From: an uncultured Armatimonadia bacterium
GTDB taxonomy: Bacteria > Armatimonadota > Zipacnadia > CAVVLO01
Direction: 5' to 3'
DNA: 64,000 bases
NCBI GenBank assembly: GCA_963749155.1
Contig: CAVVLO010000001.1
Span: 918,452-982,451, forward strand
Under the pieces are notes generated by a model, which was given only the letters and a program-made list of their open reading frames with translations, was not told the DNA's origin and made no database searches. The position numbers were made by a program, and so were the translations under genes. Below are positions 26,707 to 64,000 of this stretch, in pieces (position 1 is the stretch's first letter; each line of letters begins with the position of its first letter).

Positions 26707-29385
26707 TTGGTACGTATGCCTGACGGCAGGAAATGGGTGTACTTGTTCAGCGAAGGCAACAAGGAGATGCGCGACCTTCTTGGTGGTAAGGGCAGCAACC
26801 TCGCCGAGATGACCAATGCAGGGCTTCCGGTACCTCAGGGCTTCACAATCACCACCGAAGCTTGCAACGAATATATTTCTCTTGGCAACAACTGGCCCGC
26901 TGGCTCCTGGGAACAGGCCGAAGTCGCGATGCAGAAGCTTCAGGAGATGACCGGCAAGCAGTTTGGCGATCCCGGTAATCCACTGCTTGTATCTGTCCGC
27001 TCAGGCGCGAAGTTCTCGATGCCGGGTATGATGGACACCGTGCTTAACCTGGGCCTCAATGACGCCACAGTCGAAGGCCTGGCCGAACTCACAGGCAATC
27101 CCCGCTTCGCTTATGACTCCTACAGGCGCTTCATTATGATGTTCGGCGACGTCGTCCTCAAGGTCGAGCGCGAACACTTCGAGAAGATCTTTGATGCCAA
27201 GAAGGCCGAGCGTGGTATTGAGCTCGATACCGAGCTTGCCGCTGAAGACCTCAAAGCTGTGGCAGAGCAGTTCAAGGCCCTTGTCGAGAAAGACACTGGC
27301 AAGCCCTTCCCGACCGACCCCTGGCAGCAGCTGAAGCTGGGCGCCGAGGCCGTGTTCGGTTCCTGGATGACCCCTCGCGCCTGCACCTACCGCAAGCTCG
27401 AGAATATCCCCGACAACCTGGGCACCGCTGTAAACGTGCAGCTGATGGTCTACGGGAATATGGGCGATGACTGCGGCACTGGCGTTGCTTTCACCCGCAA
27501 CCCCTCAACCGGCGAGCGGAAGCTCTACGGCGAGTTCCTGCAGAACGCTCAGGGCGAGGACGTCGTTGCGGGCACGCGCACCCCGCTGCACATCGACGAG
27601 CTTTCCAAGATTATGCCTGAGGTCTATACGCAGTTTGCCCAGTTGGCTGAACTGCTGGAGCGCCATTACCAGGATATGCAAGATCTCGAGTTCACCATCG
27701 AGAAGGGCAAGCTGTATATGCTGCAGACCCGCAACGGCAAGCGCACTGGTAGCGCTGCCATCAAGGTCGCGGTTGATATGGCGAAAGAGGGCCTTATCGA
27801 CAAAAAGACGGCCATTATGCGCGTCACCCCCTCACAGCTTGACCAGTTGCTGCACAAGCGCATCGATGTGGACCAGGCGCCCGTCTCAATTGCCAAGGGC
27901 CTGCCCGCCTCTCCAGGCGCCGCGCAGGGCATCGTAATCTTCGACTCGCACGAGGCTGCCGAAGTTGGGCAGACCGAAGCGGTCGTGCTGGTTCGCCCCG
28001 AGACCTCTCCAGATGACATCGCTGGCTTGCATGCGGCTCAGGGTACCCTGACCAGCCGCGGCGGTATGACCAGCCACGCCGCCGTTGTGGCTCGTGGTAT
28101 GGGCCGTCCCGCTGTAGTAGGTTGCGAGTCTCTCAACATCGATATGGAAAAGGAAGTCGTCACCACCAAAGATGGCTCCGCCACTTTCAAAAAGGGCGAT
28201 TTCATCACCGTGGACGGCAGTACTGGCCAGATCTATATCGGCGCCGTGCCGTTGATTGACCCCGTGATGAGCGAGGACTTCACCACGCTGCTCGCCTGGG
28301 CTGACGAACTCCGCAAGCTGGGCGTGCGCGCCAATGCAGATACTCCCGAAGACGCCAAAGTCGCCTTTGACTTCGGCGCCGAGGGTGTGGGCCTGTGCCG
28401 CACCGAGCATATGTTTATGGGCGAGGAGCGCCTTCCCGTCGTGCAGGGAATGATTATGGCCAGCGGCATCGAAGACCGCGCGCCCTTCCTCGAGCAGTTG
28501 CTCCCGATGCAGCGCAGCGACTTCGAAGGCATATTCAAGTCGATGGAAGGCCGTCCGGTCATCATCCGCCTGCTCGATCCGCCTCTGCACGAGTTCCTGC
28601 CCGATGAGGTCGAGCTTGTCGAGAAGATCACCGAGCTCCGTTGCAAGGGTGAGACAGGCGCAGAGTTCGAGAAGCTGCAGGCCATCCTTGAGCGCGTTCG
28701 CGCCCTCAAGGAGTTCAACCCGATGCTCGGTCTGCGTGGTTGCCGCCTCGGCATCACGATGCCCGACGTAAACGAGATGCAGGTCAAGGCCATCATCTCC
28801 GCGGCCTGCCGTGTGAAACAGGCTGGCGAACCGGTCAAGGTAGAGATAATGATCCCGCTTGTCGGCACCGTCGGCGAGCTCAAGCATGTCCGCGCTGACC
28901 TGGAGCGGATCGCCAAAGAGACAATGGCGTCCGAAGGCATCGAAGTCGAGTATATGTTCGGCACGATGATCGAGATCCCGCGCGCGGCGATTGTTGCCGC
29001 AAAGATCGCCGAAGATGCCGAGTTCTTCAGCTTCGGTACTAATGACCTGACGCAGACGACCTGGGGTTACAGCCGGGACGATGCCGAGGGCAAGTTCATC
29101 CACAAGTACCTCGAGATGGGCATCCTCGATGAGGATCCCTTCCAGGTGTTGGATGGCGAGGGCGTTGGCAAACTGATGCAGATGGCCAAGGAGGCAGGAC
29201 GTGCAACGCGTCCTGACCTTGAAGTGGGCATCTGTGGCGAGCATGGCGGCGATCCGAAGTCGATCACCTTCTGCCACAGCATCGGCCTGGACTATGTGAG
29301 CTGCTCGCCTTTCCGCGTGCCAATCGCGCGTCTGGCGGCCGCCCAGGCTGCCGTAGCCGAAGAAGTGAGTTACAGCAACGCCTGA
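26707..29385 (+). CDS. ppdK: Pyruvate, phosphate dikinase
   Basis: LLGGKGSNLAEM, GGMTSHAAVVARG, SFGTNDLTQ, GICGEHGG. Confidence 0.98.
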   Translation: MVRMPDGRKWVYLFSEGNKEMRDLLGGKGSNLAEMTNAGLPVPQGFTITTEACNEYISLGNNWPAGSWEQAEVAMQKLQEMTGKQFGDPGNPLLVSVRSGAKFSMPGMMDTVLNLGLNDATVEGLAELTGNPRFAYDSYRRFIMMFGDVVLKVEREHFEKIFDAKKAERGIELDTELAAEDLKAVAEQFKALVEKDTGKPFPTDPWQQLKLGAEAVFGSWMTPRACTYRKLENIPDNLGTAVNVQLMVYGNMGDDCGTGVAFTRNPSTGERKLYGEFLQNAQGEDVVAGTRTPLHIDELSKIMPEVYTQFAQLAELLERHYQDMQDLEFTIEKGKLYMLQTRNGKRTGSAAIKVAVDMAKEGLIDKKTAIMRVTPSQLDQLLHKRIDVDQAPVSIAKGLPASPGAAQGIVIFDSHEAAEVGQTEAVVLVRPETSPDDIAGLHAAQGTLTSRGGMTSHAAVVARGMGRPAVVGCESLNIDMEKEVVTTKDGSATFKKGDFITVDGSTGQIYIGAVPLIDPVMSEDFTTLLAWADELRKLGVRANADTPEDAKVAFDFGAEGVGLCRTEHMFMGEERLPVVQGMIMASGIEDRAPFLEQLLPMQRSDFEGIFKSMEGRPVIIRLLDPPLHEFLPDEVELVEKITELRCKGETGAEFEKLQAILERVRALKEFNPMLGLRGCRLGITMPDVNEMQVKAIISAACRVKQAGEPVKVEIMIPLVGTVGELKHVRADLERIAKETMASEGIEVEYMFGTMIEIPRAAIVAAKIAEDAEFFSFGTNDLTQTTWGYSRDDAEGKFIHKYLEMGILDEDPFQVLDGEGVGKLMQMAKEAGRATRPDLEVGICGEHGGDPKSITFCHSIGLDYVSCSPFRVPIARLAAAQAAVAEEVSYSNA

Positions 29386-29407
29386 GAGGGTTGCTTCCTG
29401 TGAATTA

Positions 29408-29444
29408 CAGAACCCGGGTTGGCAAGGCGCTGGCCCGGGTTCTG
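29408..29444 (+). terminator. Hairpin downstream of ppdK (probable terminator)
   Basis: CAGAACCCGGG...CCCGGGTTCTG inverted repeat. Confidence 0.55.
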
Positions 29445-29488
29445 CTTGACAGCCCCCTTTGGGTGCTGGGATAATCTGCACGACATGT

Positions 29489-29563
29489 TGGGGCGTGGCC
29501 AAGTTGGCAAGGCACAGGACTTTGGATCCTGTATCGCAGGTTCGAGTCCTGCCGCCCCAGCCA
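29489..29563 (+). tRNA. tRNA-Gln (TTG); probable island integration site
   Basis: TGGGGCG acceptor stem, CAGGACTTTGGATCCTG anticodon arm, 3' CCA; recombinase gene abuts its 3' end. Confidence 0.95.
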
Positions 29564-31132
29564 TCCTTGACGTTTTGCGCAACACGGTGCTCATCCGAGC
29601 CGGCATAGAGCTCGAACAGCACCGTTTTGTCTTTGCGGATGGTTATCCGCTTCACTAGAGCATCGACTAGCAGACCTCTCTCCTCTGCAGTGCAAAAGTC
29701 GAACAGTTCGGGCAACTGACCAAACAGCTCTTTTGCCTCTTCCAGGTTGCATGGCCTTGGTGCAGCCTCGCGAAGCCTGAGCTGCGCATCGGCCAGTTCA
29801 TGCTCGAGCTGCCTGAGGTTGCTCTCAAGGTTGGTCAGGCGTCCCTGAAGTCCGCTGCTGGTGAGTCCCTTCTCGATCGCCTGGTATACCTTCTCAAGCT
29901 TGTCGGCTACGTCGGTACGTCTACGCCGGAGTTTGTCTGCCTCTTGCCTTAGCGAGGCGGTCGATGCCTCCAACTCGTCGATCGATTCCTGGGCTGCCCT
30001 GGCCAGGGCCTCCTCGTCAGTCGACAGCTCTCCGCACGACCTTCATGAAGAGCTTGTCGAGCACCTCCCCATTGATGCGTCTGACATCGCACTCGATGCC
30101 CAGGTAGCGGCCGATGCGATAGCATTCATAGTAGGCTGTGAAGTTCTTCTTTCGGTTGGGGTGCCTGGTGGCCTTGGGTGACATCCTGCAACCGCAGTGG
30201 TCGCAGTAGACTTTACCAGCGAGCAGGAAGTCGTAGTCTACGTTCATCTCCGGCCGGTGGGAATGCTCTGCGAACAAGTTCTGGGCCAGTTCGAAGGTCT
30301 CGGGATCGATGAGGGCCGGGTGTGAGCCTTCGCAACGCAGGCCCGAGTAGTTGAGTTCGCCCAGGTAGATTCGATTCTGGAGAATGTAGGAGAGCTTCTG
30401 CTTGGACCAGTATCTGAGCGCAGGTCTGTCGGGATTAGTCTTCGTGCTCCAGTTACTTGGCTTGATCCCAAGCGCTACTAGCTTGTCTCGAGTAGCTGCC
30501 AGGCTACGCGTGCGCAGATACTCCTGGAAGATAAGCTTGAGGGTAGGCGCTTCGTTCTCGTCGGGCACCAGCCCGCTATTGCACACGTTGTATCCAAAGG
30601 GCGGCATGCCACCCGGCCACCTGCCTGCTCTCGCAAGAGCTATCATCTTGTCCCGGGTGCGCTCAGCTGTCATCTCACGCTCTAGCTCGGCAAAGGTCAT
30701 GGCAATGTTGCGCATCGCCTTGCCCATCGGATGCGAGGTGTCGAACTGGTCTTTAACCGCAACGAAGCTGACGCCATACTGCTCGAACCGGGCATCGAGC
30801 TGGACGAAGTCGGCAAGCGACCGGGTGATGCGATCGAGCTTGTAAGTCACCACCACGTCGAAGACGCCCTCCTCGGCATCGAGCAGCAAGCGCTGCAGGC
30901 CAGGGCGCCGGGTATTTTTGCCCGAGAAGCCTGCGTCCTCGTAGAAGCCTTGCAGTTCCCATTCAGGATGACTTGCGGTGATGAAGGCAGTTATGATGTC
31001 GCGCTGGGACTCGAGCGTGTTGTACTCGCCCCTGGTCTGGTCTTCGGTGGAGCAGCGCAGATAGCCCACGGCGCGACCCCTATGCACCTGTTCCTTGATT
31101 TTCATTTGCTTTTTTACTCGTCTACTGGACAT
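29564..31132 (-). CDS. Large serine recombinase 1 (frameshift near 30025; frame runs on into antisense tRNA-Gln)
   Basis: Catalytic GYLRCSTEDQ, YKLDRITR, GGMPPFGY, zinc ribbon CDHCG; coiled-coil C-terminus is the 5' part of ORF 27886-29973. Confidence 0.9.
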
Positions 31133-33469
31133 CGTCAGCTCTCTCCTCCTGGGTCACTTCTGGGTTCGCAGCCGGCAGGCCGATTTCCTGCACGCGCTCC
31201 AAGGCCGTCTTAAAGCTGTCCGCACCGAGGGCCTTCCAGAGCCGGTGTAGTGCAGAGTTCACGGCGACCTGACTAACCTTCCTGCGTTTGGCTATCTCGG
31301 GCTGGCTCAGCCCCTGTCGCAGCAGTTCCAGACACTGAAGCTGCAATTTGGTCGGCTTGCCGACTCCAAGTTGTTCTGCCAGGTCGCCCTCTGCAAGCTG
31401 ACGACAAGCGCGCACTAGCAGTTCGATTGAGGGTTCCTCTGGACTTAGCAAGCCAAGGTCGAGAGCCCTTGCAACTAGATGACCCACCTGATGGACTTTG
31501 AGCCTGGTGCTGGCCCTTTGTCTTCTGCCAGCCGCAGTAGCCTCGGGATAACCGTTGGCCAGGCCCTCCTGGCTGACAGTGAGCCCGGCGGCCAGGGCGC
31601 GAAGGGAAATCAGTTCTTTTTGGGTAAGTAGAGTCGGCTGCTGCTTTGGCTTGCTGCACGCGGCCTTCGAGGGGCAGCAAGTCGCGCCACTGAGCGATCA
31701 GGGAAGCAGCAAGCACCGCAGCCTCCCGCTCATTCTCGGCACCCATCGCGTCAATCGCCCGGTTTCGAAGAGTATTAACCGTGGAGCTAGACACCTGGAA
31801 TCGCTTGCGAATGGCTTTGTCGTTCAGGCCATCGGCTACCAGCGCCAGATAAGCCAGTTGGCGTCGGGTGATCCTGGCGCAGAATTTACCCTTTCGGATC
31901 CTGCGCCACTGGAACCCGATCGGTAGCATAAATCGCTGCTCGGGCAGGTATTTAAAGAGGACCCTGATACTCACTGCGCCTTGGGCAAGACCGACTTCGA
32001 CCCGCTCGATCAGCGCTTCGCAGAGGGCCCGTCTGCGCTCTGGGGAGGCCTCTTCCCAAAGCCGGGGCAGATCGGCAAGCAGGCCTTCAACCTTCGCGAA
32101 GTCCTCTTCAAGAGTCCGGCGACTATCTCCCACTGCCATAAGCTCACTCAGTCGGCGCTCAAGCTTGAAAGCCTGCTCATTTACCTGTCTATCGATAGAC
32201 TGAAGCAATTGTTCGCTGAGCGCGCCGTCAGTGTATTGCGCGGCAGCGGCATCTCGATGCTTCTGGAGTTTCGCCAGTTCATCTCGAACACGAGTCTCTT
32301 CGTTCCCGTTTGCATATTCTTTCTTAAACAAGCCAAGCGCAACGCGCCTGGCCTCCTCGAGCACCTCGGGCTTCGACGCATATTCCAATAGCAGGTCTCT
32401 GACACGCTGCTCGAGGAATTCGCCCCTCACGTAAGGTCTGGTCTCACAGTCTATATCGAGCTTTGGTCCTCTGCACCGGTAGCCATAATTCTTGCCCAGC
32501 CTGTGCACGAGCACCAGGCGACTTTTGCACTCGGCACACCAGGTCAGCCTGCCAAGCAAAGCCTCTGGACAACCGTGCGTTCGTCCAGAAAAGCGTCGTC
32601 TGGACCGGAGCAATTCCTGTATGCGAAAGAAAGTATTCGGGTCGACCAGCCGTTCATCCCAGTGAGCACCCTGTATATACTTTCCCTCGTGCGCGATCAG
32701 TCCAGCGTGCAGTGGATTCGTCAAGACCTTACTCACGGTATTTGCTCGCCAATAAGGTCCACCTTTCGGAGCGGGGATCCCCCTTGCCCGGATTTCTTTC
32801 GCAACCGCCTCCAGTCCGGAGCTTTGCTCATAGAGTTGGAAGATTAGTTTTACGACATCGGCCTCAGCCGGTTCTGCCACAATGCCTGGTCTTGCTCTAC
32901 TTGGTGTCATTAGGATCACCTACCGGTCCAGTGTTGCGCCAGCCATAGCCTGGCCTTCCTGTGGGATAGCCGTCTTCTCGTCGCTGGCGCATGGCCGACT
33001 TCACATTCTCGGCTCCGATATTGGCAAACAATTCTGCGGCTAGCGCCATGAAATGGGCTGCGAATTTGCCCATCGGGGTAGTCGTATCGAGACTGTCACT
33101 TACAGAAACCAGTGCTACACCAGACTCCTCTACACATTCATGAAAGAAATCGAGCCAGACCCGAGCATTGCGCCCCAATCTGTCGAGACGCCAGAAGGCT
33201 ACGACGTCGATTTCTCTGGCTTTCACAGCAGCCACCAGCGCAGCCAGTGCAGGCCTTAACCTGCGGGTCTGACCCGGCTTGTAGCCATACCGGCCCGATA
33301 TCCCCTCATCGGCAAACACCTGCAAGGTATAGCCATCAACTCTATACAGCCGATCGAGGTGCTGCCGGCAGGCGGTCTCCTGGGACTCGAGCGAATAGCC
33401 GGACTGCACCTGCTCCTCGGTCGAGACCCTTTTGTATAGTCCTACTCTGGGTCTTGTAAGGGGTTTCAT
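31122..33469 (-). CDS. Large serine recombinase 2 with C-terminal LuxR-type HTH repeats (frameshifts near 32920 and 31650)
   Basis: GLYKRVSTEEQ, WRLDRLGR, GRPGYGW, CAECK zinc ribbon; then ITRRQLAYLALVADGL..., LTQKELISLRALAAGL..., PTKLQLQCLELLRQGLSQPEIA... Confidence 0.85.
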
Positions 33470-33623
33470 TTCGTTGCTCCTTTACTGAGAATTTCTGCCC
33501 TTTATGGGCTTTCAAAACGTGTATCAGGTACTCCATGCCATCGACGTTATGCATTTCAATATATTATACATGAGTCGTACTGGTTTATAAAGTACTGCAC
33601 TTCTTATTAAACGTATTCTAAAC

Positions 33624-33809
33624 TCAGCACGAAGAATTACATAACTTATCCTCTGCTGAAGCCTGCTCCGGTGCGTCTTGATCGGACTCTTGCCCCGCGT
33701 TCGCTTTGGGATTTGTTATCGCCTCGTAGACCATAGTTGCGAGCAGCTGGGCGAAGGCATGCCTGCTCTGCTCAGGATCATCCGACTGTTGATGACTGGG
33801 TTGCTGCAT
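33624..33809 (-). CDS. Small hypothetical protein upstream of the recombinases
   Basis: 61-aa ORF co-oriented with the recombinases; no recognisable domain. Confidence 0.35.
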   Translation of the reverse strand: MQQPSHQQSDDPEQSRHAFAQLLATMVYEAITNPKANAGQESDQDAPEQASAEDKLCNSSC

Positions 33810-33960
33810 TTGGGCTCACCCCCTTCGCTGCCTGGCTTTGCTTTTGGCGCTGCTTTGCCCGGCGCAGCACCTCGAGTACCAGCGCATAACGCCGTACGAT
33901 ATCCGGGGTGTGGACGAGTATCAGACTTGCTGTGTATCGACCTTCTCTTTCCATCTGCAT
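33778..33960 (-). CDS. Small hypothetical protein
   Basis: 60-aa ORF overlapping the previous one; no recognisable domain. Confidence 0.35.
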   Translation of the reverse strand: MQMEREGRYTASLILVHTPDIVRRYALVLEVLRRAKQRQKQSQAAKGVSPNAATQSSTVG

Positions 33961-34044: not shown

Positions 34045-35262
34045 ATGATGGAGGAGATAGTCGTGAGTATGCCAGTTCAACTGTGGGCGCCTAAGACGCC
34101 TACGAATCCGATCTTCCCAAGGGCACAGGCAGACTTGGAGGCAGCTTTCCGTTTGTGGCAGGGCGAGATACGAATCTATTTCCACGATTTTTGCGATCAG
34201 ACCAGGCGTTTCGTAACCGAAAAGACCGTGCAGGATGTAGGGCTCCCCCAGGCACTCGTTCCGGGCCAGGAATTGCGGATCTTGGACGTGGTGCACATTG
34301 ATGAGCAGCTAGGTGTATGGCCGCCAGTTGACATGGGGCCGGATGTTCCCGAACTGAACCGAGTCTCAGCGTCTCTGTACCAGCAATGGGCTGACTCTCG
34401 GCTACTCATTTTGAGAGGGAGAAAGAGTTTTCGTTGGAGGCTGCCTGCAGTGAGGAACGGAGAGCTGGCTTGGGAGGATTTCGATATCTCGATGCCGCCC
34501 GGACCCGTTGCGGACCTGATAGCAGAGGAGGGAGACGAAGGTCTCATCAAGATCCGTTTTGGTTCCGGACTGGCGGGACGCCCAACGGTTAGCCTCGAGC
34601 TCGAACAACTCGAGCAGCACGGGAACCTGCGATGGGAAGAAGACCATGAATTATCTGAGGAATGGGATGTTGTGGTGTCGCAAGATGCCCCCGACATACC
34701 CGCGATATACCTAACGCACAGATGGCCCAGCCCCTTCGATGTTATGTTCCCCTTTGTGGGACTCGACATACTGCATAGCTGGGGCACTATGCAAATAGCA
34801 CTTGAGAACATAAGAGAAGGTCGCACTGAACTGGCACTTAAAGCCGCCTGTGAGGTTGTAGAGTCGCGGACAGCCGAGGTAGGTGTAGAGTTATGCTACG
34901 CCTGGTTCTTGCCGAAGCTCTCGTTAAGTCCGCAGGAGGCGCTCATGGCACTAGAAAACCGCTTTGGGCTGGTATTCTCTACACTGGACAAGGTTTTCCA
35001 ATCGGCTGAAGCAATGCGGCTGTTGTCCACACCCATTCCAGTCAGAAGGGTGGTAGGCTGGGACGGTTACTTATGGTGGCGTTTGTATGAGGACCTGCAA
35101 TCAGGCATGGGATTCGGGGTTTGTCGTCGCTGCGGGCAACCGCTCATCGGTGTCACGAGCGCAAGGCGATTCTGCTCAAGAGCAGAAAACGAGGAGTGCT
35201 ACCTTGCCCGACGGGCTGCTTCGCAGAGGGAGCGCTATAAGAGAACGAGGAACCACACTTAA
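34045..35262 (+). CDS. Hypothetical protein with C-terminal CGNR-like zinc finger
   Basis: VCRRCGQPL...RRFCS...EC...RRAASQRERYKR pattern. Confidence 0.7.
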   Translation: MMEEIVVSMPVQLWAPKTPTNPIFPRAQADLEAAFRLWQGEIRIYFHDFCDQTRRFVTEKTVQDVGLPQALVPGQELRILDVVHIDEQLGVWPPVDMGPDVPELNRVSASLYQQWADSRLLILRGRKSFRWRLPAVRNGELAWEDFDISMPPGPVADLIAEEGDEGLIKIRFGSGLAGRPTVSLELEQLEQHGNLRWEEDHELSEEWDVVVSQDAPDIPAIYLTHRWPSPFDVMFPFVGLDILHSWGTMQIALENIREGRTELALKAACEVVESRTAEVGVELCYAWFLPKLSLSPQEALMALENRFGLVFSTLDKVFQSAEAMRLLSTPIPVRRVVGWDGYLWWRLYEDLQSGMGFGVCRRCGQPLIGVTSARRFCSRAENEECYLARRAASQRERYKRTRNHT

Positions 35263-35893
35263 CAGTTTGCGACAGCGCACCGGCGCTACCCCATTGTGGG
35301 GGTAGCCTGCAACCTGGCTTGAGGAGAACTCCCCCTTCCTATCTCTGAGCTAGCAAGGCGCTCTACAGCGCCGTTTACAGCGAGCAGGACACTGCCGTGT
35401 TGTATCCTACTTGATATCGCAAGGCTCCATGTACCGGGCGTTTTCAAGTCCTGCATCACCATCACCAACCTGAGTGTGGCATCGGTAGAAAACGCGACAA
35501 CGAAAACTGCGTTTTCTAAGCTGGTGGGGCTTGAAAGCTCCTCGGCCGCTCCCGAAGGCCGGGTTCGGTCTTCAGTTGGGGCGTCCTGGGCCAGCAGCGA
35601 TCGCTGACTTCGCTAGCAAAGTGGCGCTGCTTCGAATCGCACTGCTCCCAGCCATCGTGATGCAATACCTGGCGTAGCAGCCATAATGGCCTCCTCCATG
35701 TCCGCCTGGCGGATCGCTGGCGATCAGTCGGTCTCTGGATCCGGCCGCCCTCTTAGCTGCCCTGGCAGGATTTACGGCTGGCATAATGCTCACCTGTTGA
35801 TGTCACAGCTGCCAGTCAAGGGGCTCCGGGGGGCAGGCGACCTGGGCACCCGGACACTGAGGCCACGGGGGAGCTGTCTCGTTATCAGCAGGT

Positions 35894-38281
35894 ATGCACA
35901 GCCCTGCAACGAAACCAGCATTAGGACGACAGCCAGAACGTGTGCGACTTAAGGCGCACCGGGGAGGCCATCGGGTCGTGGCAAGGAGACGTCTGGGCAC
36001 TCAACCAAACCCCGCCAACCCCAAGAACTGGCTAACGGGCGCGAGCAAGACCATCGTGCTGTTGATGGTCTTCCTGGTGCCGCTTGCCATCTGGCCGGGC
36101 ACGGCGAACGCCAACGCCATCAAGGACCTGCTCTTCGGCCTCGGCTCGATCGCGCTTGCAGTCCTCCTGACGGTCCGCTTGATGCGCGGGGAGCGGCTCA
36201 GGCTGGGACGTTCGCCCCTGTTCCTGCCCCTTGCCTGCATGCTCGCCTGGGATGTCGTCTCGGGGCTGCTGTCAGGCTATCTGTACGCCAGTCTCACTGC
36301 CCTCGGCCACCTCGCCGGTTACGCGCTGCTCTATATCGCGGTCGTTGATCTGGCGGCCGAGAGAGGGCAACTGGGCCGGCTGCTGGCAGTGGTGATGAGC
36401 GCGTCACTGTTGACCTGCGTCTACGGGTTGCTCCAGCACTGGGGCATCGACTGGATTGAGTGGTACCCGAGGGAACTACGCCTGCTCTCCTCCTTCGGTA
36501 ATCCCACCTTCTTTGCGGCCTGGCTGGTACTGTTGCTTCCACTGGCGGTGGTGTTGCACGTGCAGGCGGAGACGAGGGCAGGGCGGCTCGCCGCCGGCAC
36601 GCTGGCCCTGCTGATGTATGTCTGCCTGCTCTTCACCTACACGCGGGCGGCGTGGCTTGGGCTGGCGCTGGGGCTCGTGGTTACTGGGCTTCTGCTCAGC
36701 CTGAAGCGAGCAACCACGGAAGAAACCGGGAAGGCGTGGTACCTGAGGATCGGCTGGCTGGCTTTCGCCTTCGCGGTGGCGACCCTTTGGACACTCGGCC
36801 ACAGTCCCGTGTCGATGTCCTCACGACTTGCCTCTTCGTTCCAGACGAACGAAGCCTCGAACGTGCAGCGCCTTGGTATCTGGCATGGGGCGCTTGCGAT
36901 GTTCAAGGCCCATCCCGTCACGGGCGCGGGCCTTGGCACCTTCGAGATCCACTTCCCCGAGTTCGAGTCGCCCGAGTTCTACTCGACCGGCGCCGCGACG
37001 ATGGTGGATCACGCCCACAACGAGTTCCTGGAGACCGCGGCCGAGACGGGCCTCATCGGGCTGGGGCTGCTCCTCTGGCTTGCAGTTGCCTGCGTCGTGA
37101 CGGCGGTGAGGGCGGCTCGCCTGGCCGAGGCCCGCTGGCGCTACCTTGCCAGCGGGGCGCTTGGCGGGCTTGTGGCGTTCATGGTGCAGAACCTGGCAGG
37201 CGTGACGCTAAGGTGGGTGTTCGGCGGCCTGTTCTTCTGGTTGCTGCTCGCGCTAGTTACGGTGGCAGAACAGCAGAGCCGGAGTAACCGCAGCGAAGCT
37301 CCTGGCACCTCAGTTATCACAGCCAGAGGGAACGCCTGGCCGGCCAGCCGGCTGGCAGCAGCGTCGGTAGTGATAGCCCTGGCCGCAGTCCTCGGCAGCG
37401 TAGCGGTGGTGCGCGCCTTCGCTGCTGGCTACCACCTGAAGCAGGGAAGACTACGCCAACGAACAGAGCGTGTGGGAGCTTGCCGGGACGCAGCTCACCG
37501 AGGCCCTCAGGCTGGATCCGTACTCGCTGGACGCCTACTACCAGCTGGGCCACGTGCTCAACATGACCGGCGATTATGAGGGGGCGCTCTCAGCATACCA
37601 GTCGCTTGGCCGCCTGGCGCCGAACTACGGGCGCCTGCACTTCAACCTGGGAGTCGTCTACTCGAACCTGGGCGATACCGCGCAGGCTGTGGCTGAGTAT
37701 AGGCGGGCCGTTGCGCTCGAGGACTCGCCCAGCGCTCACCTGGCGCTTGCCGAAGGTCTCATGGCCGAGGGGCAGGGCGAGGAGGCGCTCGAAGAGGCAG
37801 GCCTGGCGATCGCCAAGCTCGACAAGCAAGGTCCGGCCCCGGCGCTGATCCTGGGGACGCCTATCTGCGCCGGGGCAAGCTCAGATATGCCGAGAAGCAA
37901 TACGCGGGAGCTGAACAGGACTACCGCAAGTGTCTGGAGCTGACACCAGAGAGCAAGCTGGCCCGGTTCTACCTGGGCAACCTGTACCGAGCCCAGCGGC
38001 GATCCGCCGAGGCCCTTGCCCAGTACCAGAAGGCGCTGGAACTGGACCCCACTGACGCGCGAGTCCTCACGAACCTGGGCGCTGTGTACATCGACGAGGG
38101 CAAGTGGTCGGAGGCCGAGGTGCAGCTCCTAAAGGCCCTCAAGCTCTCCCCAAACGATGAAAGGGCGCGTTACAACCTGGCCCTCGTCTATCAGAAACAG
38201 GGCCTCGTCGCCAAGGCTCAAGCAGAACTGGACAAGCTGGGGCGCCCGGAGCTCTTGGATCAGCCGGATGGGCCTTCGTAA
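35894..38281 (+). CDS. O-antigen ligase (Wzy_C) family membrane protein with C-terminal TPRs (two frameshifts)
   Basis: SSFGNPTFFA, TYTRAAWLG, GAGLGTF, HAHNEFLE; TPR repeats in 37470-38281. Confidence 0.85.
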
Positions 38282-38393
38282 CGACCTTTGCACGAGTTCG
38301 AGTAGTCGACTCACGCCTGCCGCTCCCTTCTCCTCGCACTCACATCTAATACTTCCAGGATCTGCCATCGCCAGGCTAGTGGTACAACCGGGG

Positions 38394-40783: not shown

Positions 40784-41715
40784 ATGGAGCGGTCTACTCC
40801 TCCAGTCTGGATGGTTGCAGCAGTTGTGGTCGGCGTGCTGGTCGGCGCGGCGGCGCTCTGGCATCTGCTCGCAGGTCCGAGTGCGGGCGGGAGCCATTCC
40901 GCTGCATCGCTCTCTGATTCCACCGAGTCCGCCCCCTCTCCCGTGGCCCGGGGCCTGTACGACGAGGCCTATGCGGCAGCCGGGAAGGGGGATATACGAG
41001 GGCTGCGGAGCGCTTCTCGCAGCTGCTGGCGAAGTGTCCCAATGACCCGCTGGCCGATGATGCCCAGTACCAGCGCGGCATCTGCTTCTTCGCCCAGAGG
41101 GACTACGCCGATGCCGAGCGCGAGTTCCGGGAGCTGCAGCAGCGCTTCCCCGACAGCTACCTCAGCGAGAAGGCTGAGGACTGGATCGCCAAGGCCCGGG
41201 TCAAGCAGGGCGGCGGGACCACGAAGGTAACAGACGCTCCGGGTTCCGCTACGAGGCCTGTCGAAGAGGCCATCAGCGACGTCACGGGGGCAGGCGAGCG
41301 CAAGCTGGAGCCGCTCATCTACGAGGAGACGCGACCTGCGCCGCGGGTGGGGATGTGTGGGCCGGACGCACTGGCGATCATCTGCAAACAACTTGGAGAG
41401 GCAACTACGCCCGAAGAACTAGCCCGCCTCGCCAGCACCGACCGCACAGGCACCTCGCTGGCGGGTCTTGCGAAAGCGGCCAAGGCCAAGGGACTGGCGG
41501 CCGAGGGGCTCCAGGTGAACTACGAGTACCTGCGCAAGATGCCAAAGCCCGTGCTTGCCTGGGTGGGCGGCAATCACTACGTAGTGGTGACGGCGGCGAG
41601 CAGGGATGCGGTTGAGTTGAACGATCCCGCAAAGGGACGCTACGCACTTGCAGTTGGCCCGTTTGAGCGGATATGGGACGGCTACGTGCTGGCCGTCAGC
41701 CTCAGAGAACAGTAG
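40784..41715 (+). CDS. Membrane-anchored TPR + C39 cysteine peptidase, copy 1 (frameshift near 41030)
   Basis: N-terminal TM, TPR, then CGPDAL, GTSLAGL, NHYVVV, NDPAKG, FERIWDGYVL. Confidence 0.85.
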
Positions 41716-41738
41716 CGCAGGACGCAGGGAGGCAGCAG

Positions 41739-44700
41739 ATGAGCAGGCTGGCGGGCAGCAGGTTAGGGCAGATAGCGAGCTATGTGGCGGCGTTCTGTTG
41801 CGCATGGCTGATCTGCCTGGGCGACTGGGCACAGTTGGCGGGAGCCCAGGCGGCCAGTCGGCCTGGCGCTGCCCCGGCGGTTGCCAGTATGCGCGTGCTC
41901 GCGCCCGGCGAGCTAACGAGCATCAGCGGGCAGACTACCAACTCGTGCTTGGTGCAGGGGGTGCCTGACCCCTGCGTCGTCGCGATGAGGAACGCGTCCG
42001 AAATTATGTCGGGCTCCTGCCGGCCTGGTGTTAGCTGCGATCGACTGGCCCGGGTGGTGTGTGCTGCCTCGCCGGGAGGCCAGGCCAGCGCCTCTCAGTT
42101 GGTTGGCAAGAGCAGCAACAGCCTGGGTCCGCACGTGGACCTGGAGCTGTATCACAGCAGCCGCAACATCGGCTCGACGGGCTTCTTCGGGCGGGTGTGG
42201 GCCTCGACCTGGGACCAGCACGTCTCGGAGGCGCCAGGCGGCAACGTGACGGTCTTCCGCAAGGACCACACGCTCGATGAGTTCACCAGGAACGTGGACG
42301 GCTCCTACACCGCCCCTCCCGGCGTGCACGATGTGCTGGTGAAGCACACCGCTACCGATGGCAGCTTCACGCTGACGCTGGTGGACGGCACCGAGCAGCA
42401 CTTCTACCCCCTTGGGGGCACAACCTCCGGTCGGCTGGACACCGTGACGGACCGCAACGGCAACACCGTGACCTGCGGCTACGAGGGCACCGGGAAGGTC
42501 ACGACAGTCACCGACGCGGCCGGGCGCATCACCACCTTCGCCTACGATGGCTCCGGGCGCGTCGAGAGCGCAACCAACCCGGCCCTGGAGATAACCACTT
42601 TCACTTACGATGCAAATAGCGACCTGCAGACGGTGACGTTGCCCACCGGGGCAATAACGACCTATACCTACGATGCCAACCACCGCATCAGCCAGCTCAC
42701 CGACCCCAACGGCCGAGTGACCACCTTCAGCTACGACGGGGATGGACGCACGACGGGGGTGACCGATCCCCTTGGCTACCGCAGCACCGTTACCTATAAC
42801 GGCATCTACTGCAGCTGGACGGATCCGCTCGGGCAGCTCACGACCTACACCTACGACGGGACGGACCAGTTCGCCAAGCTCATCGCCTCCGAGGACCCGA
42901 CTGGCCGGACCGTGAGCTACACCTACAACAGCGACCGGGCGCGGACGGAGGTCACCGACCCGCTGGGCAACATCACGACCTTCACCTACGACTCGGATGG
43001 CAATCGCACCAGCTCAACCAACCCGCTGGGCAAGACCACTTATTACACCTGGGACTCGGACCACCACCTCACCACCGTGACCGATCCGCTGGGCAACACC
43101 ACCACCTACACCTACGAGGGGAGCGGCAACCTGGAGACGGTCACCGATCCCCTCGCTAGCGAAACAGGCTTCACCTACACGGCCGAGGGGCTACCGGAGA
43201 CGGTTACCGACCCGCTGGCTGGCGTCACGACCTTCACCTATGACGCTGACGGGAACCTGGCGACGGTGAGGGACGCGCTCGGCAACCTCACCACTCATAC
43301 CTATGATGCGATTGGGAACAGGCTGACGACAACCGATGCCCTGAACCATACGACCACCTTCACCTACGATGCCATCGACAGGCTCATCCAGACGACCTTC
43401 CCCGATGGCAACAGCCGCACGGTCACTTACCAGGGGAGCCTTCAGATCCAAAGCACCGATGAAGAGGGCCGCATCACCACCAACACCTTCGACACGGGCG
43501 GCCGGCTGATCGGGGTAACGCTTGCGACCGGGGCGATGACGACTTACGTCTACGACGCCCTGAACCGGCTCGCTAGCGGTGACCGATGCCGAGGGCGTTG
43601 CGCCTGCGGCTGACTACAGCGTGGCCGGCGCCGGCACCAGCGCCTTCAACGGGGACTATTCCGAGGACGGCACTTACAACGGCAAGCCGGCCTACAAGCT
43701 GGACAACAGCCATTACCTCATCTGGCAGACCCGGGCGTTGCCGCCGGCCTCGGAGCGCTGGGAGCTGCAGACCCAGAAGGGCGGGGGCACCTGCTACTAT
43801 TATGGGACAGGCCCCGATCTTCCAGCCGGCGCCTGGACGGCCTCCAGCGGCACGCCGCCAGCGCCTACGGTGAGCGCGGCTCTACCCAACCCACACCACC
43901 ACCTACACCTACGATGCGGCCGGGCGCCAGCTGACGGCCACCGACCCCTGGGCAACACCACGACCAACTCCTACGATGACGCGGGCCGGCTGCTGACCCG
44001 GACCGACCCGCGGGGGAACCTGGTCACCTACAGCTACGATGATACGAGTCAGCTTACGGGGTGGACTACCCGACGGGCACCGACCTGGCTTTCACCTACG
44101 ATGATGCAGGGCGGCGAATCGACGTCCACGACGCCTCAGGCTACACGACCTATACTTACGATGCCCTCGGCCGGACGACCGTCGTCACCACGCCTGGGCC
44201 AGAGCGGGCCACCTATGCCTACGATACCCTCGGCAACCGCACCGAGTTCACTGACCAGGACGGGGGCCTCACCACTTACTCCTACGATGCCCTGGGGCGG
44301 CTCGAGGCGCTCACCAACCCCAGCAGCGAGGAGACGAGCTTCGAGTACGATGATATCGGCAACAGGACTCGCCTGACTCACGCTAGCGGCGCCTATACGA
44401 CCTACACCTACACCTCGCGCAACTGGCTGGAGGAGCTCTCGAACCGCAAGTCGGATGAGACGGTGCTCTCCAGCTTCGCCTATGACCACGACGACTGCGG
44501 CAACCGGACCGAGATGACCGAGGCCACGGGCGACGTCACCACCTATGCTTACGACTGCCCTCTACGAGCTGACCGGGCAGACCAAGCGCAACTCGGGGGA
44601 TGTAGTACAATATAGTTATAGCTACACTTATGACGACATCGGCAACAGGCTGACTCTTACCGACCAGGGGAGCGCGGTGACGACCTCCACTTACAACGCG

Positions 44701-53023: not shown

Positions 53024-56000
53024 TTATTGCGCCACCTTAGGATCTCTGACCAACCGACCAGACTTGGCGGCCGCAATGCAGCCATCCATGCACTGCCGAT
53101 CCCAGTTGCTGCCCAGCTCACGACCCAGGGATATCCCCACCAGGTTGTTGTCAAGATCGTGCAAGGTGTCGTCCCACCAACCCTCTACCCAAGGCCCAAC
53201 ATGTAGCTGCGGCCGGTCCTCTCCCTCTCTGTGCCTCCTATGGAGCCAGTCGTCGAGGTCGGTCCATACGGCCTGGGGCTCGTGCAGAGCGCCCACCCAG
53301 AGCGCACAGTCAGCGCTCACCAAACGAGTCAGCTTACACATCCAGAGGCAGTGAGTCACGGCGTTGCCGTAGCCCTCGGGCACACGACAGGGATCCTTTG
53401 CGTTTTCCTTGTTCATGGCCGTGATAGTGTAACGACTATTCTCACGCCCCATTAGTATGCAGCGCACCACATTATACGCCATCAGTAATGGTGGCGAAGC
53501 CGACATCCGCACATAGTAGTGAATGACATTCGCTGCCCTGCTCTGGCAGATCCCGCGCCCCAGGCTTGGGCTGAAGAACCCAGCCTCAGCGTAGTAAAGT
53601 CCTGCAGAACTCTCCCAGCGCGCCCCTTGCCCCCCAAGATAGAGGTACGGGTTGGCCACGTCGCTCTGGCCGACCGTCGCTTGCCCGAAGGCCTCGTAGC
53701 TGTAGCTGTTCTCGACGGCCTGGGAGCTGTCCACCACCTGCTTCACGCTCGCGAGCCCGTCGAGCAGGTAGTCGTAGCTGGCCCCATCGCGTCGCTGGCT
53801 CAGGAGGTCGCTGTAGAGCGAGCCCCCCTCGTGGGTGTAGCGCGCCTCGGTCTCGTCGTCGCCGTCGCGCTCCAGCACGACCTTCGCCCCATCGTAGACG
53901 AACTTGGTCGTTGCCCCGCCTTCCACCTTCGTCAGCCGCTGCCCGGCGGAGTTGTAGGTGTAGTTGGTCTCGGAAGAGTCTGGGTACTCGATGTCGGTCA
54001 GCCTGTCGTCGTAGTCCCAGGTGTAGGAGCGCGTCCCGGCGCTCGTGACCTCGGCGGCGAGATTGCCCGAGGCGTCGTAGGTGTAGGTCGTCAGCGTCCC
54101 GGAGGCGTCCGTCCCGGTCAACTGCCCGCCTGCGTTGTAAGTGGAGGTCGTCACCGCGCTCCCCTGGTCGGTAAGAGTCAGCCTGTTGCCGATGTCGTCA
54201 TAAGTGTAGCTATAACTATATTGTACTACATCCCCCGAGTTGCGCTTGGTCTGCCCGGTCAGCTCGTAGATCGAGTCGTAAGCATAGGTGGTGACGTCGC
54301 CGGTGGCCTCGGTCATTTGAGTCCGGTTGCCGCAGTCGTCGTGGTCATAGGCGAAGCTGGAGAGCACCGTCTCATCCGACTTGCGGTTCGAGAGCTCCTC
54401 CAGCCAGTTGCGCGAGGTGTAGGTGTAGGTCGTATAGGCGCCGCTAGCGTGAGTCAGGCGAGTCCTGTTGCCGATATCATCGTACTCGAAGCTCGTCTCC
54501 TCGCTGCTGGGGTTGGTGAGCGCCTCGAGCCGCCCCAGGGCATCGTAGGAGTAAGTGGTGAGGCCCCCGTCCTGGTCGGTGAACTCGGTGCGGTTGCCGA
54601 GGGCATCGTAGGCATAGGTGGCCCGCTCTGGCCCAGGCGTGGTGACGACGGTCGTCCGGCTGAGGGCATCGTAAGTGTAGGTCGTGTAGCCTGAGGCGTC
54701 GTGGAAGTCGATTCGCCGCCCTGCATCATCATAGGTGAAGGCCAGGTCGGTGCCCGTCGGGTAGTCCACCCCAATAAGCTGACTCGTGTCATCGTAGCTG
54801 TAGGTGACCAGGTTCCCCCGCGGGTCGGTCCGGGTCTGCAGCCGGCCCGCATCGTCGTAAGTGTTCGTCGTGGTGTTGCCGAGGGGATCAGTGGCCGTCA
54901 GCTGCCGCCCGGCCGCATCGTAGGTGTAGGTGGTGGTGTGGGTTGGGTAGAGGCGCGTCACCGTGGGGGCTGGCGGCGTGCCGCTGGAGGCCGTCCAGGC
55001 GCCGGCTGGAAGATCGGGGCCTGTCCCATAATAGTAGCAGGCGCCCCCGCCCTTCTGCGTCTGCAGCTCCCAGCGCTCAGAGGCCGGCGGGAGCAGCCGG
55101 GTCTGCCAGATGAGGTAATGGCTGTTGTCCAGCTTGTAGGCCGGCTTGCCGTTGTAAGTGCCGTCCTCGGAATAGTCCCCGTTGAAGGCGCTGGTGCCGG
55201 CGCCGGCCACGCTGTAGTCAGCCGCAGGCGCAACGCCCTCGGCATCGGTCACCGCTAGCAGCCGGTTCAGGGCGTCGTAGACGTAAGTCGTCATCGCCCC
55301 GGTCGCAAGCGTTACCCCGATCAGCCGGCCGCCCGTGTCGAAGGTGTTGGTGGTGATGCGGCCCTCTTCATCGGTGCTTTGGATCTGAAGGCTCCCCTGG
55401 TAAGTGACCGTGCGGCTGTTGCCATCGGGGAAGGTCGTCTGGATGAGCCTGTCGATGGCATCGTAGGTGAAGGTGGTCGTATGGTTCAGGGCATCGGTTG
55501 TCGTCAGCCTGTTCCCAATCGCATCATAGGTATGAGTGGTGAGGTTGCCGAGCGCGTCCCTCACCGTCGCCAGGTTCCCGTCAGCGTCATAGGTGAAGGT
55601 CGTGACGCCAGCCAGCGGGTCGGTAACCGTCTCCGGTAGCCCCTCGGCCGTGTAGGTGAAGCCTGTTTCGCTAGCGAGGGGATCGGTGACCGTCTCCAGG
55701 TTGCCGCTCCCCTCGTAGGTGTAGGTGGTGGTGTTGCCCAGCGGATCGGTCACGGTGGTGAGGTGGTGGTCCGAGTCCCAGGTGTAATAAGTGGTCTTGC
55801 CCAGCGGGTTGGTTGAGCTGGTGCGGTTCCCATCCGAGTCGTAGGTGAAGGTGGTGATGTTGCCCAGCGGGTCGGTGACCTCCGTCCGCGCCCGGTCGCT
55901 GTTGTAGGTGTAGCTCACGGTCCGGCCAGTCGGGTCCTCGGAGGCGATGAGCTTGGCGAACTGGTCCGTCCCGTCGTAGGTGTAGGTCGTGAGCTGCCCG

Positions 56001-57091: not shown

Positions 57092-57114
57092 CTGCTGCCT
57101 CCCTGCGTCCTGCG

Positions 57115-58047
57115 CTACTGTTCTCTGAGGCTGACGGCCAGCACGTAGCCGTCCCATATCCGCTCAAACGGGCCAACTGCAAGTGCGTAGCGTCCCTTTG
57201 CGGGATCGTTCAACTCAACCGCATCCCTGCTCGCCGCCGTCACCACTACGTAGTGATTGCCGCCCACCCAGGCAAGCACGGGCTTTGGCATCTTGCGCAG
57301 GTACTCGTAGTTCACCTGGAGCCCCTCGGCCGCCAGTCCCTTGGCCTTGGCCGCTTTCGCAAGACCCGCCAGCGAGGTGCCTGTGCGGTCGGTGCTGGCG
57401 AGGCGGGCTAGTTCTTCGGGCGTAGTTGCCTCTCCAAGTTGTTTGCAGATGATCGCCAGTGCGTCCGGCCCACACATCCCCACCCGCGGCGCCGGTCGAG
57501 TCTCCTCGTAGATGAGCGGCTCCAGCTTGCGCTCGCCTGCCCCCGTGACGTCGCTGATGGCCTCTTCGACAGGCCTCGTAGCGGAACCCGGAGCGTCTGT
57601 TACCTTCGCGGTCCCGCCGCCCTGCTTGACCCGGGCCTTGGCGATCCAGTCCTCAGCCTTCTCGCTGAGGTAGCTGTCGGGGAAGCGCTGCTGCAGCTCC
57701 CGGAACTCGCGCTCGGCGCCGGCATAGTCGCCCTGGGCGAAGAAGCAGATGCCACGCTGGTACTGCGCATCGTCGGCCAGGGGGTCGTTGGGGTACTTGG
57801 CGCAGCAGGCGCGCGAAGTTATCCGCGTCCTTGCCGTAATCCCCCTCCCCGCAGCCGCGTAGGCGTCGCAGTAAAGGCCCTGGGCCAGGAGAGAGGGGGC
57901 GGACTCGGTGGAATCAGAGAGCGATGCAGCGGAATGGCTCCCGCCCGCACTCGGACCTGCGAGCAGATGCCAGAGCGCCGCCGCGCCGACCAGCACGCCG
58001 ACCACAACTGCTGCAACCATCCAGACTGGAGGAGTAGACCGCTCCAT
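57115..58047 (-). CDS. Membrane-anchored TPR + C39 cysteine peptidase, copy 2 (single ORF)
   Basis: 310 aa; C/H/D triad motifs CGPDAL, NHYVVV, NDP; no ABC transporter domain. Confidence 0.9.
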   Translation of the reverse strand: MERSTPPVWMVAAVVVGVLVGAAALWHLLAGPSAGGSHSAASLSDSTESAPSLLAQGLYCDAYAAAGRGITARTRITSRACCAKYPNDPLADDAQYQRGICFFAQGDYAGAEREFRELQQRFPDSYLSEKAEDWIAKARVKQGGGTAKVTDAPGSATRPVEEAISDVTGAGERKLEPLIYEETRPAPRVGMCGPDALAIICKQLGEATTPEELARLASTDRTGTSLAGLAKAAKAKGLAAEGLQVNYEYLRKMPKPVLAWVGGNHYVVVTAASRDAVELNDPAKGRYALAVGPFERIWDGYVLAVSLREQ

Positions 58048-63900: not shown

Positions 63901-64000
63901 GGACGCCTCTGGCACGCTGACCACCTTCACCTACGATGCCTCGGGCAACCTCTCGACTGAGGTCATCGGCGCCGGGACGCGCTCCTACACCTGGGACTAC
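60921..64000 (+). CDS. RHS/YD-repeat protein, copy 3 (partial, runs off window; frameshift near 61530)
   Basis: Near-identical to copies 1 and 2 from CAGGGAGGCAGCAGATG onward. Confidence 0.9.

Follow-up and report, generated by a model that had tools for sequence, protein, structure and literature searches.

We describe a recombinase operon in a 64-kb stretch of DNA from an uncultured Armatimonadia bacterium (the whole stretch is referred to here as the window). On balance, the first recombinase of the operon, denoted recA, probably belongs to an uncharacterized clade of large serine recombinases (LSRs) that is extended at the C-terminus by LuxR/GerE-type helix-turn-helix (HTH) domains and that, in this lineage, is split into two cistrons, carries three HTHs and is paired with a second LSR gene, recB, at the flank of a tRNA gene. 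The operon lies on the minus strand between 29.5 and 34.0 kb of the window, directly 3' of a tRNA-Gln gene, and consists, in this order, of sORF1, sORF2, recA-N, recA-C and recB, all names being those given in this analysis (Table 1). Four DNA loci were compared, namely the window, a paralogous island of the same genome (L006, on contig C2; hereafter the paralog), locus L037 of G333, a second Armatimonadota genome available as one contig of 5.37 Mb, and L038, a metagenome contig. The statements on the conserved split rest on these four loci, and those on the tRNA flanks on the three of them that have flanks.

Judged by its domains, recA is an LSR that departs from the usual type in the organization of its chain and in its C-terminal extension. 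A Pfam scan recovered all three families that had been named in the first-pass annotation of this locus (GerE, Resolvase and Recombinase). The recA-N open reading frame (ORF; 33469..32897) matches Resolvase (PF00239, 1.5e-29), and its catalytic Ser and Arg residues are retained, with R14, S16 and R97 invariant across the 19 rows of alignment A5. The ORF 31273..32919 matches Recombinase (PF07508, 3.7e-15) and Zn_ribbon_recom (PF13408, 3.8e-6; 27.6 bits compared to a cut-off of 25.3), and the Cys residues of the zinc ribbon of recA-C are invariant in the alignments. Among solved structures, the best match of the family profile is SprA (YokA), the integrase of the SPbeta prophage (PDB 9dxh, E 1.6e-29), which was aligned over residues 12-511 of 545, a stretch that spans the catalytic domain through the coiled-coil/C-terminal region. 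The putative coiled-coil region of recA-C aligns with SprA through residue 511, and the equivalent piece of recB yields only weak coiled-coil-type Pfam hits. That an LSR ordinarily has no domain behind its coiled coil is true of this nearest solved relative: SprA ends there, whereas the recA family adds two or three GerE HTH domains. Given that the homology to SprA stops at residue 511 of 545, the HTHs are an addition to the LSR body; the HTH part of the family profile matches the NarL, VraR and GerE chains and not SprA. Also unlike SprA, the catalytic domain is encoded by a separate cistron in the window lineage, and the split falls in the loop after the (P/G)YGW motif, where the alignment with SprA contains a 7-column gap.

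The first-pass annotation had recognized three LuxR-type segments behind the recombinase, and these are indeed encoded on the minus strand: ITRRQLAYLALVADGL within the ORF 31273..32919, and LTQKELISLRALAAGL and PTKLQLQCLELLRQGLSQPEIA within the next frame (31697..31125). That HTH1 shares an ORF with the recombinase is correct with respect to the recombinase domain, the zinc ribbon and the coiled coil, but not with respect to the catalytic domain, which occupies an ORF of its own (33469..32897). In the window, HTH1 matches GerE (PF00196) with 24.1 bits, above the cut-off of 23.5, and HTH3 with 22.9 bits, just below it; HTH2 of the window copy has no Pfam match, and its assignment to the LuxR/GerE type comes from the relatives and from the model of the paralog. 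HTH2 of P0003 is the best GerE stretch of that protein (29.6 bits), HTH3 of P0002 is the best stretch (523-572) of a whole-protein GerE match of 45.8 bits, and the paralog scores 62.8 bits as a whole protein, with the best stretch on HTH1, which additionally scores on HTH_7 (25.3 bits compared to a cut-off of 23.8). Each HTH position thus represents the best GerE stretch in some protein, namely HTH1 in the window and the paralog, HTH2 in P0003 and HTH3 in P0002, and the G333 protein has NCBIfam matches to LuxR-family regulators on all three modules. A lack of HTH matches, one of the outcomes that would have refuted the first-pass annotation, was accordingly not observed.

Structure prediction, which had been proposed as a check, gave the same picture. 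The AlphaFold model of the 286-aa tail of the paralog, built on an alignment of 83 rows, comprises three predicted four-helix modules (pLDDT 90.3, pTM 0.70). The top PDB matches of this model in Foldseek are DNA-binding domains of the LuxR family, with weak E-values for the model as a whole and TM-scores by target of 0.83-0.88 at approximately 1 A for VraR, LiaR and GerE. The modelled HTH2 of the paralog superposes on GerE (1fse), TraR, VraR and NarL (Z 11-12, rmsd 0.8-1.5 A over 62-68 residues), and all 50 rows listed by VIA-align fall on HTH2 (residues ~113-180; Z 9.6-12.0) and are DNA-binding domains of the LuxR/GerE type. As far as sequence comparison and predicted structure can tell, the three HTH segments are real and belong to the LuxR/GerE type.

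A tblastn search with the intact 779-aa P0003 produced a colinear match across three frames of the window, a correspondence that, at the level of sequence, is far beyond chance. HTH1-3 are encoded in one frame in the paralog (L006 7104..8135), G333 and P0002, and the LSR body together with the three HTHs forms a single ORF in P0003 (779 aa), P0007 (784 aa) and P0008 (815 aa). The idea of an LSR fused to three HTHs is therefore borne out by these three proteins, but in the window lineage the same architecture is distributed over two cistrons. By these comparisons, the combination of an LSR body with three tandem LuxR/GerE HTHs behind it is genuine and conserved.

The family was delineated in several searches. 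A word-indexed search with a 548-aa ORF retrieved P0003, which contains the Resolvase domain, the Recombinase domain, the zinc ribbon and the three HTHs in one frame, and P0002 (593 aa), which has the same tail and begins at the Recombinase domain; the paralogous island is 46% identical to the window in the Recombinase part. The family profile, with 595 positions from the Recombinase domain to HTH3, was searched against 1.84e9 representatives and yielded 167 proteins (clusters) at E<=1e-30. Among the best 150 of these 167, 10 match through HTH3 by hand count (P0004, P0005 and P0006 without and P0007 and P0008 with the Resolvase domain, the others being fragments), and 98 end at profile positions 473-517, that is, at HTH2; the latter are mostly fused LSRs of 670-720 aa with HTH1 and HTH2 only. 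Pfam GerE was detected at E<=1e-3 in 34 of the 36 family members scanned, and the two exceptions are fragments that stop short of the HTH region. Among 401 sampled genomes of the phylum, 44 have a match at 1e-20, in 21 of which it reaches HTH2, and HTH3 was reached only in G000 and G333 (hand count). Thus, judging by these profile matches, most members of the clade carry two HTHs, and a small subclade carries three. All ten representatives that were looked up are each the sole member of their cluster and come from records of ENA, NCBI, Logan or JGI/IMG, either unnamed or with generic names ('site-specific DNA recombinase', 'integrase/recombinase XerC'). A locus search with single family proteins returned their source contigs only. 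One metagenomic protein, P0035 (807 aa), combines an N-terminus of the tyrosine recombinase type (Phage_integrase 23-158 of 172, plus a SAM-like domain) with the Recombinase/zinc-ribbon/GerE body of this family; it may be a real chimera, the result of an insertion into a xerC-like gene, or an artefact of gene calling.

In a quick maximum-likelihood tree of 26 rows with midpoint rooting, the three-HTH proteins form one clade (SH-aLRT 98) that consists of two sister groups, the three fused proteins (95) and the seven split rows (99), with terminal branches of ~0.5-0.6. The catalytic and DNA-binding domains are encoded by separate overlapping cistrons in all four loci, and P0003, P0007 and P0008 are fused. 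In each of the four, recA-N stops 10-20 residues past the conserved (G/P)YGW motif and recA-C begins a few residues before RxRPGI, and the layout of the junction is identical, with a strong Shine-Dalgarno sequence (AGGTGA, GGAAGGTGA, GGGAGGTG and GAGGAGG, respectively) located 4-7 nt before the ATG and the ATG located 4-14 nt before the upstream stop. The N-terminus of recA-C, MTPSRARPGI, aligns with the starts of P0002, P0004, P0005, P0006, P0016, the paralog and G333, and the five recA-C-type proteins from this list (P0002, P0004, P0005, P0006 and P0016) start 4-10 residues before RxRPGI. Conversely, six stand-alone relatives of recA-N (186-196 aa) score 206-370 bits against it, compared to 108 bits for the next match, and all of them end shortly after GYGW/GFGW. 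The junction in the window is crossed without gaps by two independent contigs, one of run X1 (32774-33172, 7 mismatches) and one of run X2 (32846-33054, 2 mismatches). The single frameshift with which the first-pass annotation had joined the HTHs to the recombinase does not suffice, because two changes are needed: recA-N ends at a TAG (32899..32897), and the ATG of the next cistron (32910..32908) is in the +1 frame. Given that the proteins of the four split loci are only 31-47% identical, the sequences indicate that the split is a feature of the family in this lineage and not damage. The simplest reading of these alignments would be a single ancient split that has been maintained, with the two products translationally coupled.

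The number of catalytic cistrons varies between the loci. The paralog encodes three tandem recA-N cistrons with ATGA overlaps (L006 4676-6344); in the first and the second of these, the second catalytic Arg is replaced by Asp (LDRLSDD) and the GYGW tail is missing. In G333, a second, degenerate Resolvase-like ORF is located upstream of recA-N (L037 11359-11862). In each locus, one copy of recA-N keeps all catalytic residues. A prediction of the complex between recA-N and residues 1-200 of recA-C scored 0.30 compared to a mark of 0.32 and weighs neither way.

The partner gene recB encodes an ordinary LSR, and a homolog of it overlaps the end of recA-C in all four loci. In the window, the frame of HTH2-3 is open over 31697..31125 with a stop at 31122, and the start of recB at 31132 overlaps the end of recA-C by 11 nt. 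The window recB is colinear with the intact recB of the paralog (L006 8128..9768, 546 aa). In all three flanked loci, the recB frame enters an antisense tRNA gene (tRNA-Gln, tRNA-Glu and tRNA-Asn), and the sequence of the island (...CTTxACGT...) starts 3-5 nt past the CCA end of the respective tRNA. The edge of the island in the window is marked by similarity to the paralog from position 29566 onwards and by contigs from other runs, which branch off at 29566-29568. Of the 14 best homologs of recB, 11 terminate in peptides that follow a conserved Q(N/S/Y)V(K/R) and, by eye and at the protein level, resemble those encoded by arms of antisense tRNAs (WTRTTN, GIRTLD, GVDSNHEP). The 3' frame of recB in the window lacks a stop of its own and so reads through the antisense tRNA-Gln and ppdK, which produces a spurious 695-aa ORF (27886..29973, minus strand). 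An empty site was sought in the genome with strings from the loose ends: none of the five 30-mers matched, and one 15-mer matched only with 2-3 mismatches, which was taken as chance. No terminal inverted repeats stood out at the island ends, where the local alignment score of 17 is within the shuffle range (14.2 +/- 2.7). A right end of the island at 33910-33916, from which the tail of recB would be rebuilt in the excised circle, was considered and rejected because the 44-nt stretch shared with the paralog is part of sORF1 and is kept in G333 as well.

Several known systems resemble parts of this operon. The CcrA/CcrB recombinases of SCC elements are encoded by two co-oriented LSR genes in one operon, and the edge of the element lies at the 3' end of a conserved gene; to our knowledge, the Ccr proteins have neither an HTH tail nor a split. 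The operon described here likewise includes two co-oriented LSR genes at the edge of an element, and the best NCBIfam match of recB is CcrB. The scores fall far short, however, of the equivalog level (137 bits for recB compared to an equivalog cut-off of 900, and 67-73 bits for recA-N), and the target here is a tRNA flank; NCBIfam matches of the operon recombinases (CcrB, CcrC, XisF) are all sub-threshold. DNA-binding domains of the LuxR/GerE/NarL type (PF00196) are as a rule present in a single copy, placed C-terminally in response regulators and autoinducer receptors, and bind DNA as dimers, whereas here three are found in tandem on a recombinase, each matching GerE in at least one family member. 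Resolvases and invertases, the small serine recombinases that end in an HTH_7, similarly join a serine catalytic domain to a simple HTH for site recognition, but in the recA family the HTHs come on top of the full DNA-binding apparatus of an LSR, the recombinase domain (RD) and the zinc-ribbon domain (ZD).

Streptococcal integrative and conjugative elements (ICEs) offer a further comparison. As described in excerpts of the respective study (PMC4701971), they include operons of several LSR genes (triplets) as well as single integrases that target rumA, and the crossover takes place in the 3' end of the integrase gene, such that integration alters the C-terminus. Operons of several LSR genes and, in the three flanked loci, a recB frame that reads into the tRNA flank are the points of likeness to the systems in these excerpts; there, the targets are protein-coding genes, and neither a GerE tail nor a split catalytic cistron is described. 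According to a passage of the Islander paper (2014, PMC4383910), serine-family integrases are not known to target tRNA genes; given that the three flanked loci are located directly after tRNA genes, this rule would have exceptions if these are true insertions. No description of LSR-GerE fusions (tandem GerE tails) or of naturally split LSRs was found in the full-text literature, subscription journals being outside the scope.

These comparisons allow a mechanism to be put forward. Under this scenario, a catalytic recA-N of ~190 aa and a DNA-binding recA-C of ~590 aa (RD, ZD, coiled coil and three HTHs) would be translationally coupled, and their products would assemble into a two-piece recombinase, which together with recB would form a heteromeric pair in the manner of CcrA/CcrB. 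The pair would mediate both insertion and excision of the element, with the 3' flanks of tRNA genes as target, and by analogy with the rumA-targeting ICE integrases, as far as they are covered by the above excerpts, the crossover might occur in the 3' end of recB. The three HTHs could provide extra sequence-specific contacts outside the core att site, at accessory or target sites, or could bind the promoter of the operon itself; target choice, directionality and autoregulation, the roles suggested for them in the first-pass annotation, may likewise apply. That a natural two-subunit LSR, anchored to additional sequence through its HTHs, would insert a minimal element at tRNA 3' flanks together with a partner LSR is a tentative proposal, which we consider possible and somewhat short of probable.

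The copy in the window contains two breaks apart from the conserved junction. In the first (31640-31660), the P0003 tblastn segments break off at 31660 and continue from 31637 in a different frame, which detaches HTH2-3; the region is continuous in the paralog, G333, P0002 and P0003. No run covers 31440-31643, and the X1 contig aligns only from 31660. Judged by the homologs, this change is peculiar to the window copy and foreign to the family; it is either a true lesion or an indel introduced during assembly. The second break is a 1-nt insertion at 30035 in the recB frame; contigs of all four other runs compared have one base fewer, which implies that recB is intact elsewhere. Compared to the 98.4% identical repeat on contig C2, the window has three indels, each an extra base in the window, a pattern that is compatible with assembly insertions. 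This 2.8-kb repeat (window 35493-38338, L006 1-2843), which adjoins both recombinase islands, encodes a Wzy_C (O-antigen-ligase-like)/TPR gene that is truncated in the window by one of these three insertions, a single nucleotide at 37454 (561 compared to 682 aa), and contig C2 starts exactly at the next repeat of the window (38335). Given the breaks at 31640-31660 and 30035, this copy is partly decayed or mis-assembled, and it may be inactive; all the evidence is computational.

Several observations weigh against the reconstruction outlined above. The two-HTH relatives are fused, and the 28 of their loci that were checked in other genomes have neither a close recB homolog nor a tRNA within ~1.5 kb, so the logic of the operon may hold only for the small three-HTH clade; furthermore, the tree comes from a quick search with midpoint rooting. 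Every genomic copy includes a broken gene: in the window both recA-C and recB, in the paralog recA-C (~L006 7280) and in G333 recB (~L037 8600). In run X5, position 30719 is directly followed by 33603 on a contig of 3,955 nt, which hence represents a natural variant without recA and the N-terminal part of recB, with a deletion of 2,883 nt (30720-33602); together with the broken genes, this deletion indicates that decay is common. The analysis revealed no recombination, excised circle or att sites, nor the distal end of the element. Finally, no DNA motif that could serve as an HTH site was convincingly common to the upstream regions of the three loci. In the whole window, the pattern ACGTTTTG(M)(R)(M) is present at just two positions, 29570-29580 (plus strand) and 33510-33520 (minus strand), in inverted orientation and compared to 0.11 expected occurrences, with one site at the tRNA-proximal end of the island and the other 41 nt upstream of recA-N. 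This pattern was picked after the sites had been seen, and the equivalent pair of the paralog is in direct orientation; accordingly, it was set aside as an HTH target.

Given this extent of decay, the entire locus could be a dead remnant, in which all breaks, including the split between the catalytic and DNA-binding parts, are pseudogene lesions and the HTHs are idle. The two frame changes in recA and the one in recB in the window, the frameshifts in the paralogous recA-C and in the G333 recB, and the X5 deletion variant are all consistent with this view. We nevertheless regard it as unlikely: the split occurs at the same position at the residue level, with a Shine-Dalgarno sequence and an ATG, in four of four loci that have diverged to 31-47% identity; the split proteins make up one clade; recA-N retains its catalytic residues; and the insertion at 30035 is absent from all four other runs. 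Decay may account for this copy only, that is, for the breaks near 31650 and at 30035.

Another possibility is that recB is the sole catalyst and recA-C a regulator or an architectural or directionality factor for it, with recA-N being vestigial or a modulator. Under this view, it would be recB, a complete ordinary LSR whose frame crosses the island junction, that performs the recombination, the three LuxR-type HTHs would be the typical equipment of a transcription factor, and the duplication and degeneration of recA-N in the paralog (three copies, two with Asp) and in G333 would be readily understood. The persistence in each locus of one recA-N with all catalytic residues, and the existence of P0003, P0007 and P0008, complete fused LSRs that bear this same tail, argue in the opposite direction and make this possibility rather improbable.

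The junction between recA-N and recA-C might also be bridged by programmed ribosomal frameshifting, as in IS3 OrfAB or prfB, to yield one LSR. The ORFs overlap by 4-14 nt, a Shine-Dalgarno-like element is located upstream, and the same +1 shift would fuse the two frames in the window, G333 and L038. The paralog, however, requires a -1 shift, which argues against a conserved programmed event, and no slippery motif is common to the junctions of the four loci. In addition, an ATG is present at the proper Shine-Dalgarno spacing everywhere, and recA-C-type and recA-N-type proteins have been called as separate products in several metagenomes, so that we consider frameshifting highly unlikely. That HTH2 and HTH3 (31122..31487/31697) are a separate LuxR-type regulator gene, with only HTH1 belonging to the recombinase, as the first-pass annotation had allowed for and as a GTG-start ORF of 121 aa in the window (31122..31487) might suggest, is hardly credible, because HTH1-3 are continuous in one frame in the paralog, G333 and P0002-P0008 and the HTH2 of the window is located upstream of that GTG.

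Table 1. Features of the recombinase operon and its tRNA flank, in window coordinates
Feature	Position	Strand	Basis
tRNA-Gln(ttg)	29489..29563	+	ARAGORN
recB 3' part (coiled-coil and C-terminal region), in another frame than the 5' part	29566..30042	-	Frame translation
recB 5' part (Resolvase, Recombinase, Zn ribbon)	30017..31132	-	Pfam 1.2e-39, 4.1e-16, 5e-10
HTH3 of recA-C, GerE-type	31215..31352	-	Pfam GerE 22.9 bits, residues 116-161 of the 191-aa frame 31697..31125
HTH2 of recA-C, GerE-type, divergent here	31446..31631	-	Gapless alignment to HTH2 of P0003, P0002 and the paralog
+1 frame change in recA-C between HTH1 and HTH2	31640..31660	-	tblastn of P0003
HTH1 of recA-C, GerE-type	31708..31872	-	Pfam GerE 24.1 bits, residues 350-404 of ORF 31273..32919
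recA-C main part (Recombinase domain, zinc ribbon, coiled-coil region, HTH1)	31660..32910	-	Pfam; conserved ATG 32910..32908
Cistron junction: Shine-Dalgarno AGGTGAT 32921..32915, ATG 32910..32908, recA-N stop TAG 32899..32897	32897..32921	-	
recA-N, 190-aa catalytic cistron (Resolvase domain, helix E, ends past the GYGW motif)	32897..33469	-	Pfam 1.5e-29
sORF2, small conserved ORF upstream of recA-N	33624..33809	-	Similarity by eye
sORF1, small conserved ORF, 60 aa, head of the operon	33778..33960	-	48-49% identity to relatives

Upstream of the recombinase genes, sORF1 is 48-49% identical to L006 4022..4249 and L037 12061..12219, and sORF2 has counterparts, judged by eye, in the equivalent position of the paralog (L006 4195..4353) and G333; neither small ORF matched a Pfam or NCBIfam family. 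The ORF 34045..35262 (plus strand, 405 aa), divergent from the operon, is unique in the genome and contains a Cys-rich C-terminal stretch, with no Pfam or NCBIfam family matched; it was rejected as a gene of the element, being single in the genome and unlike the ORF at the same place in G333. The right-hand part of the window (38335-64000) contains a large gene cluster with YD/RHS-type repeats of a 63-nt period and multi-kb inverted and direct repeats, for example 41029-43570 and 55260-57801 (99% complementary) or 54011-56485 and 61526-64000 (98%), and contig C1 ends inside this cluster.

LSRs are leading tools for the insertion of large DNA, and the choice of their sites is generally attributed to nothing but the recombinase and zinc-ribbon domains, within a single chain. 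If true, the presence of two or three HTHs on an LSR body would suggest a way in which nature extends or re-targets site recognition, or in which such a recombinase regulates itself, and the persistence of the catalytic domain on its own cistron across deeply diverged relatives would offer a precedent from nature for split, controllable integrases.

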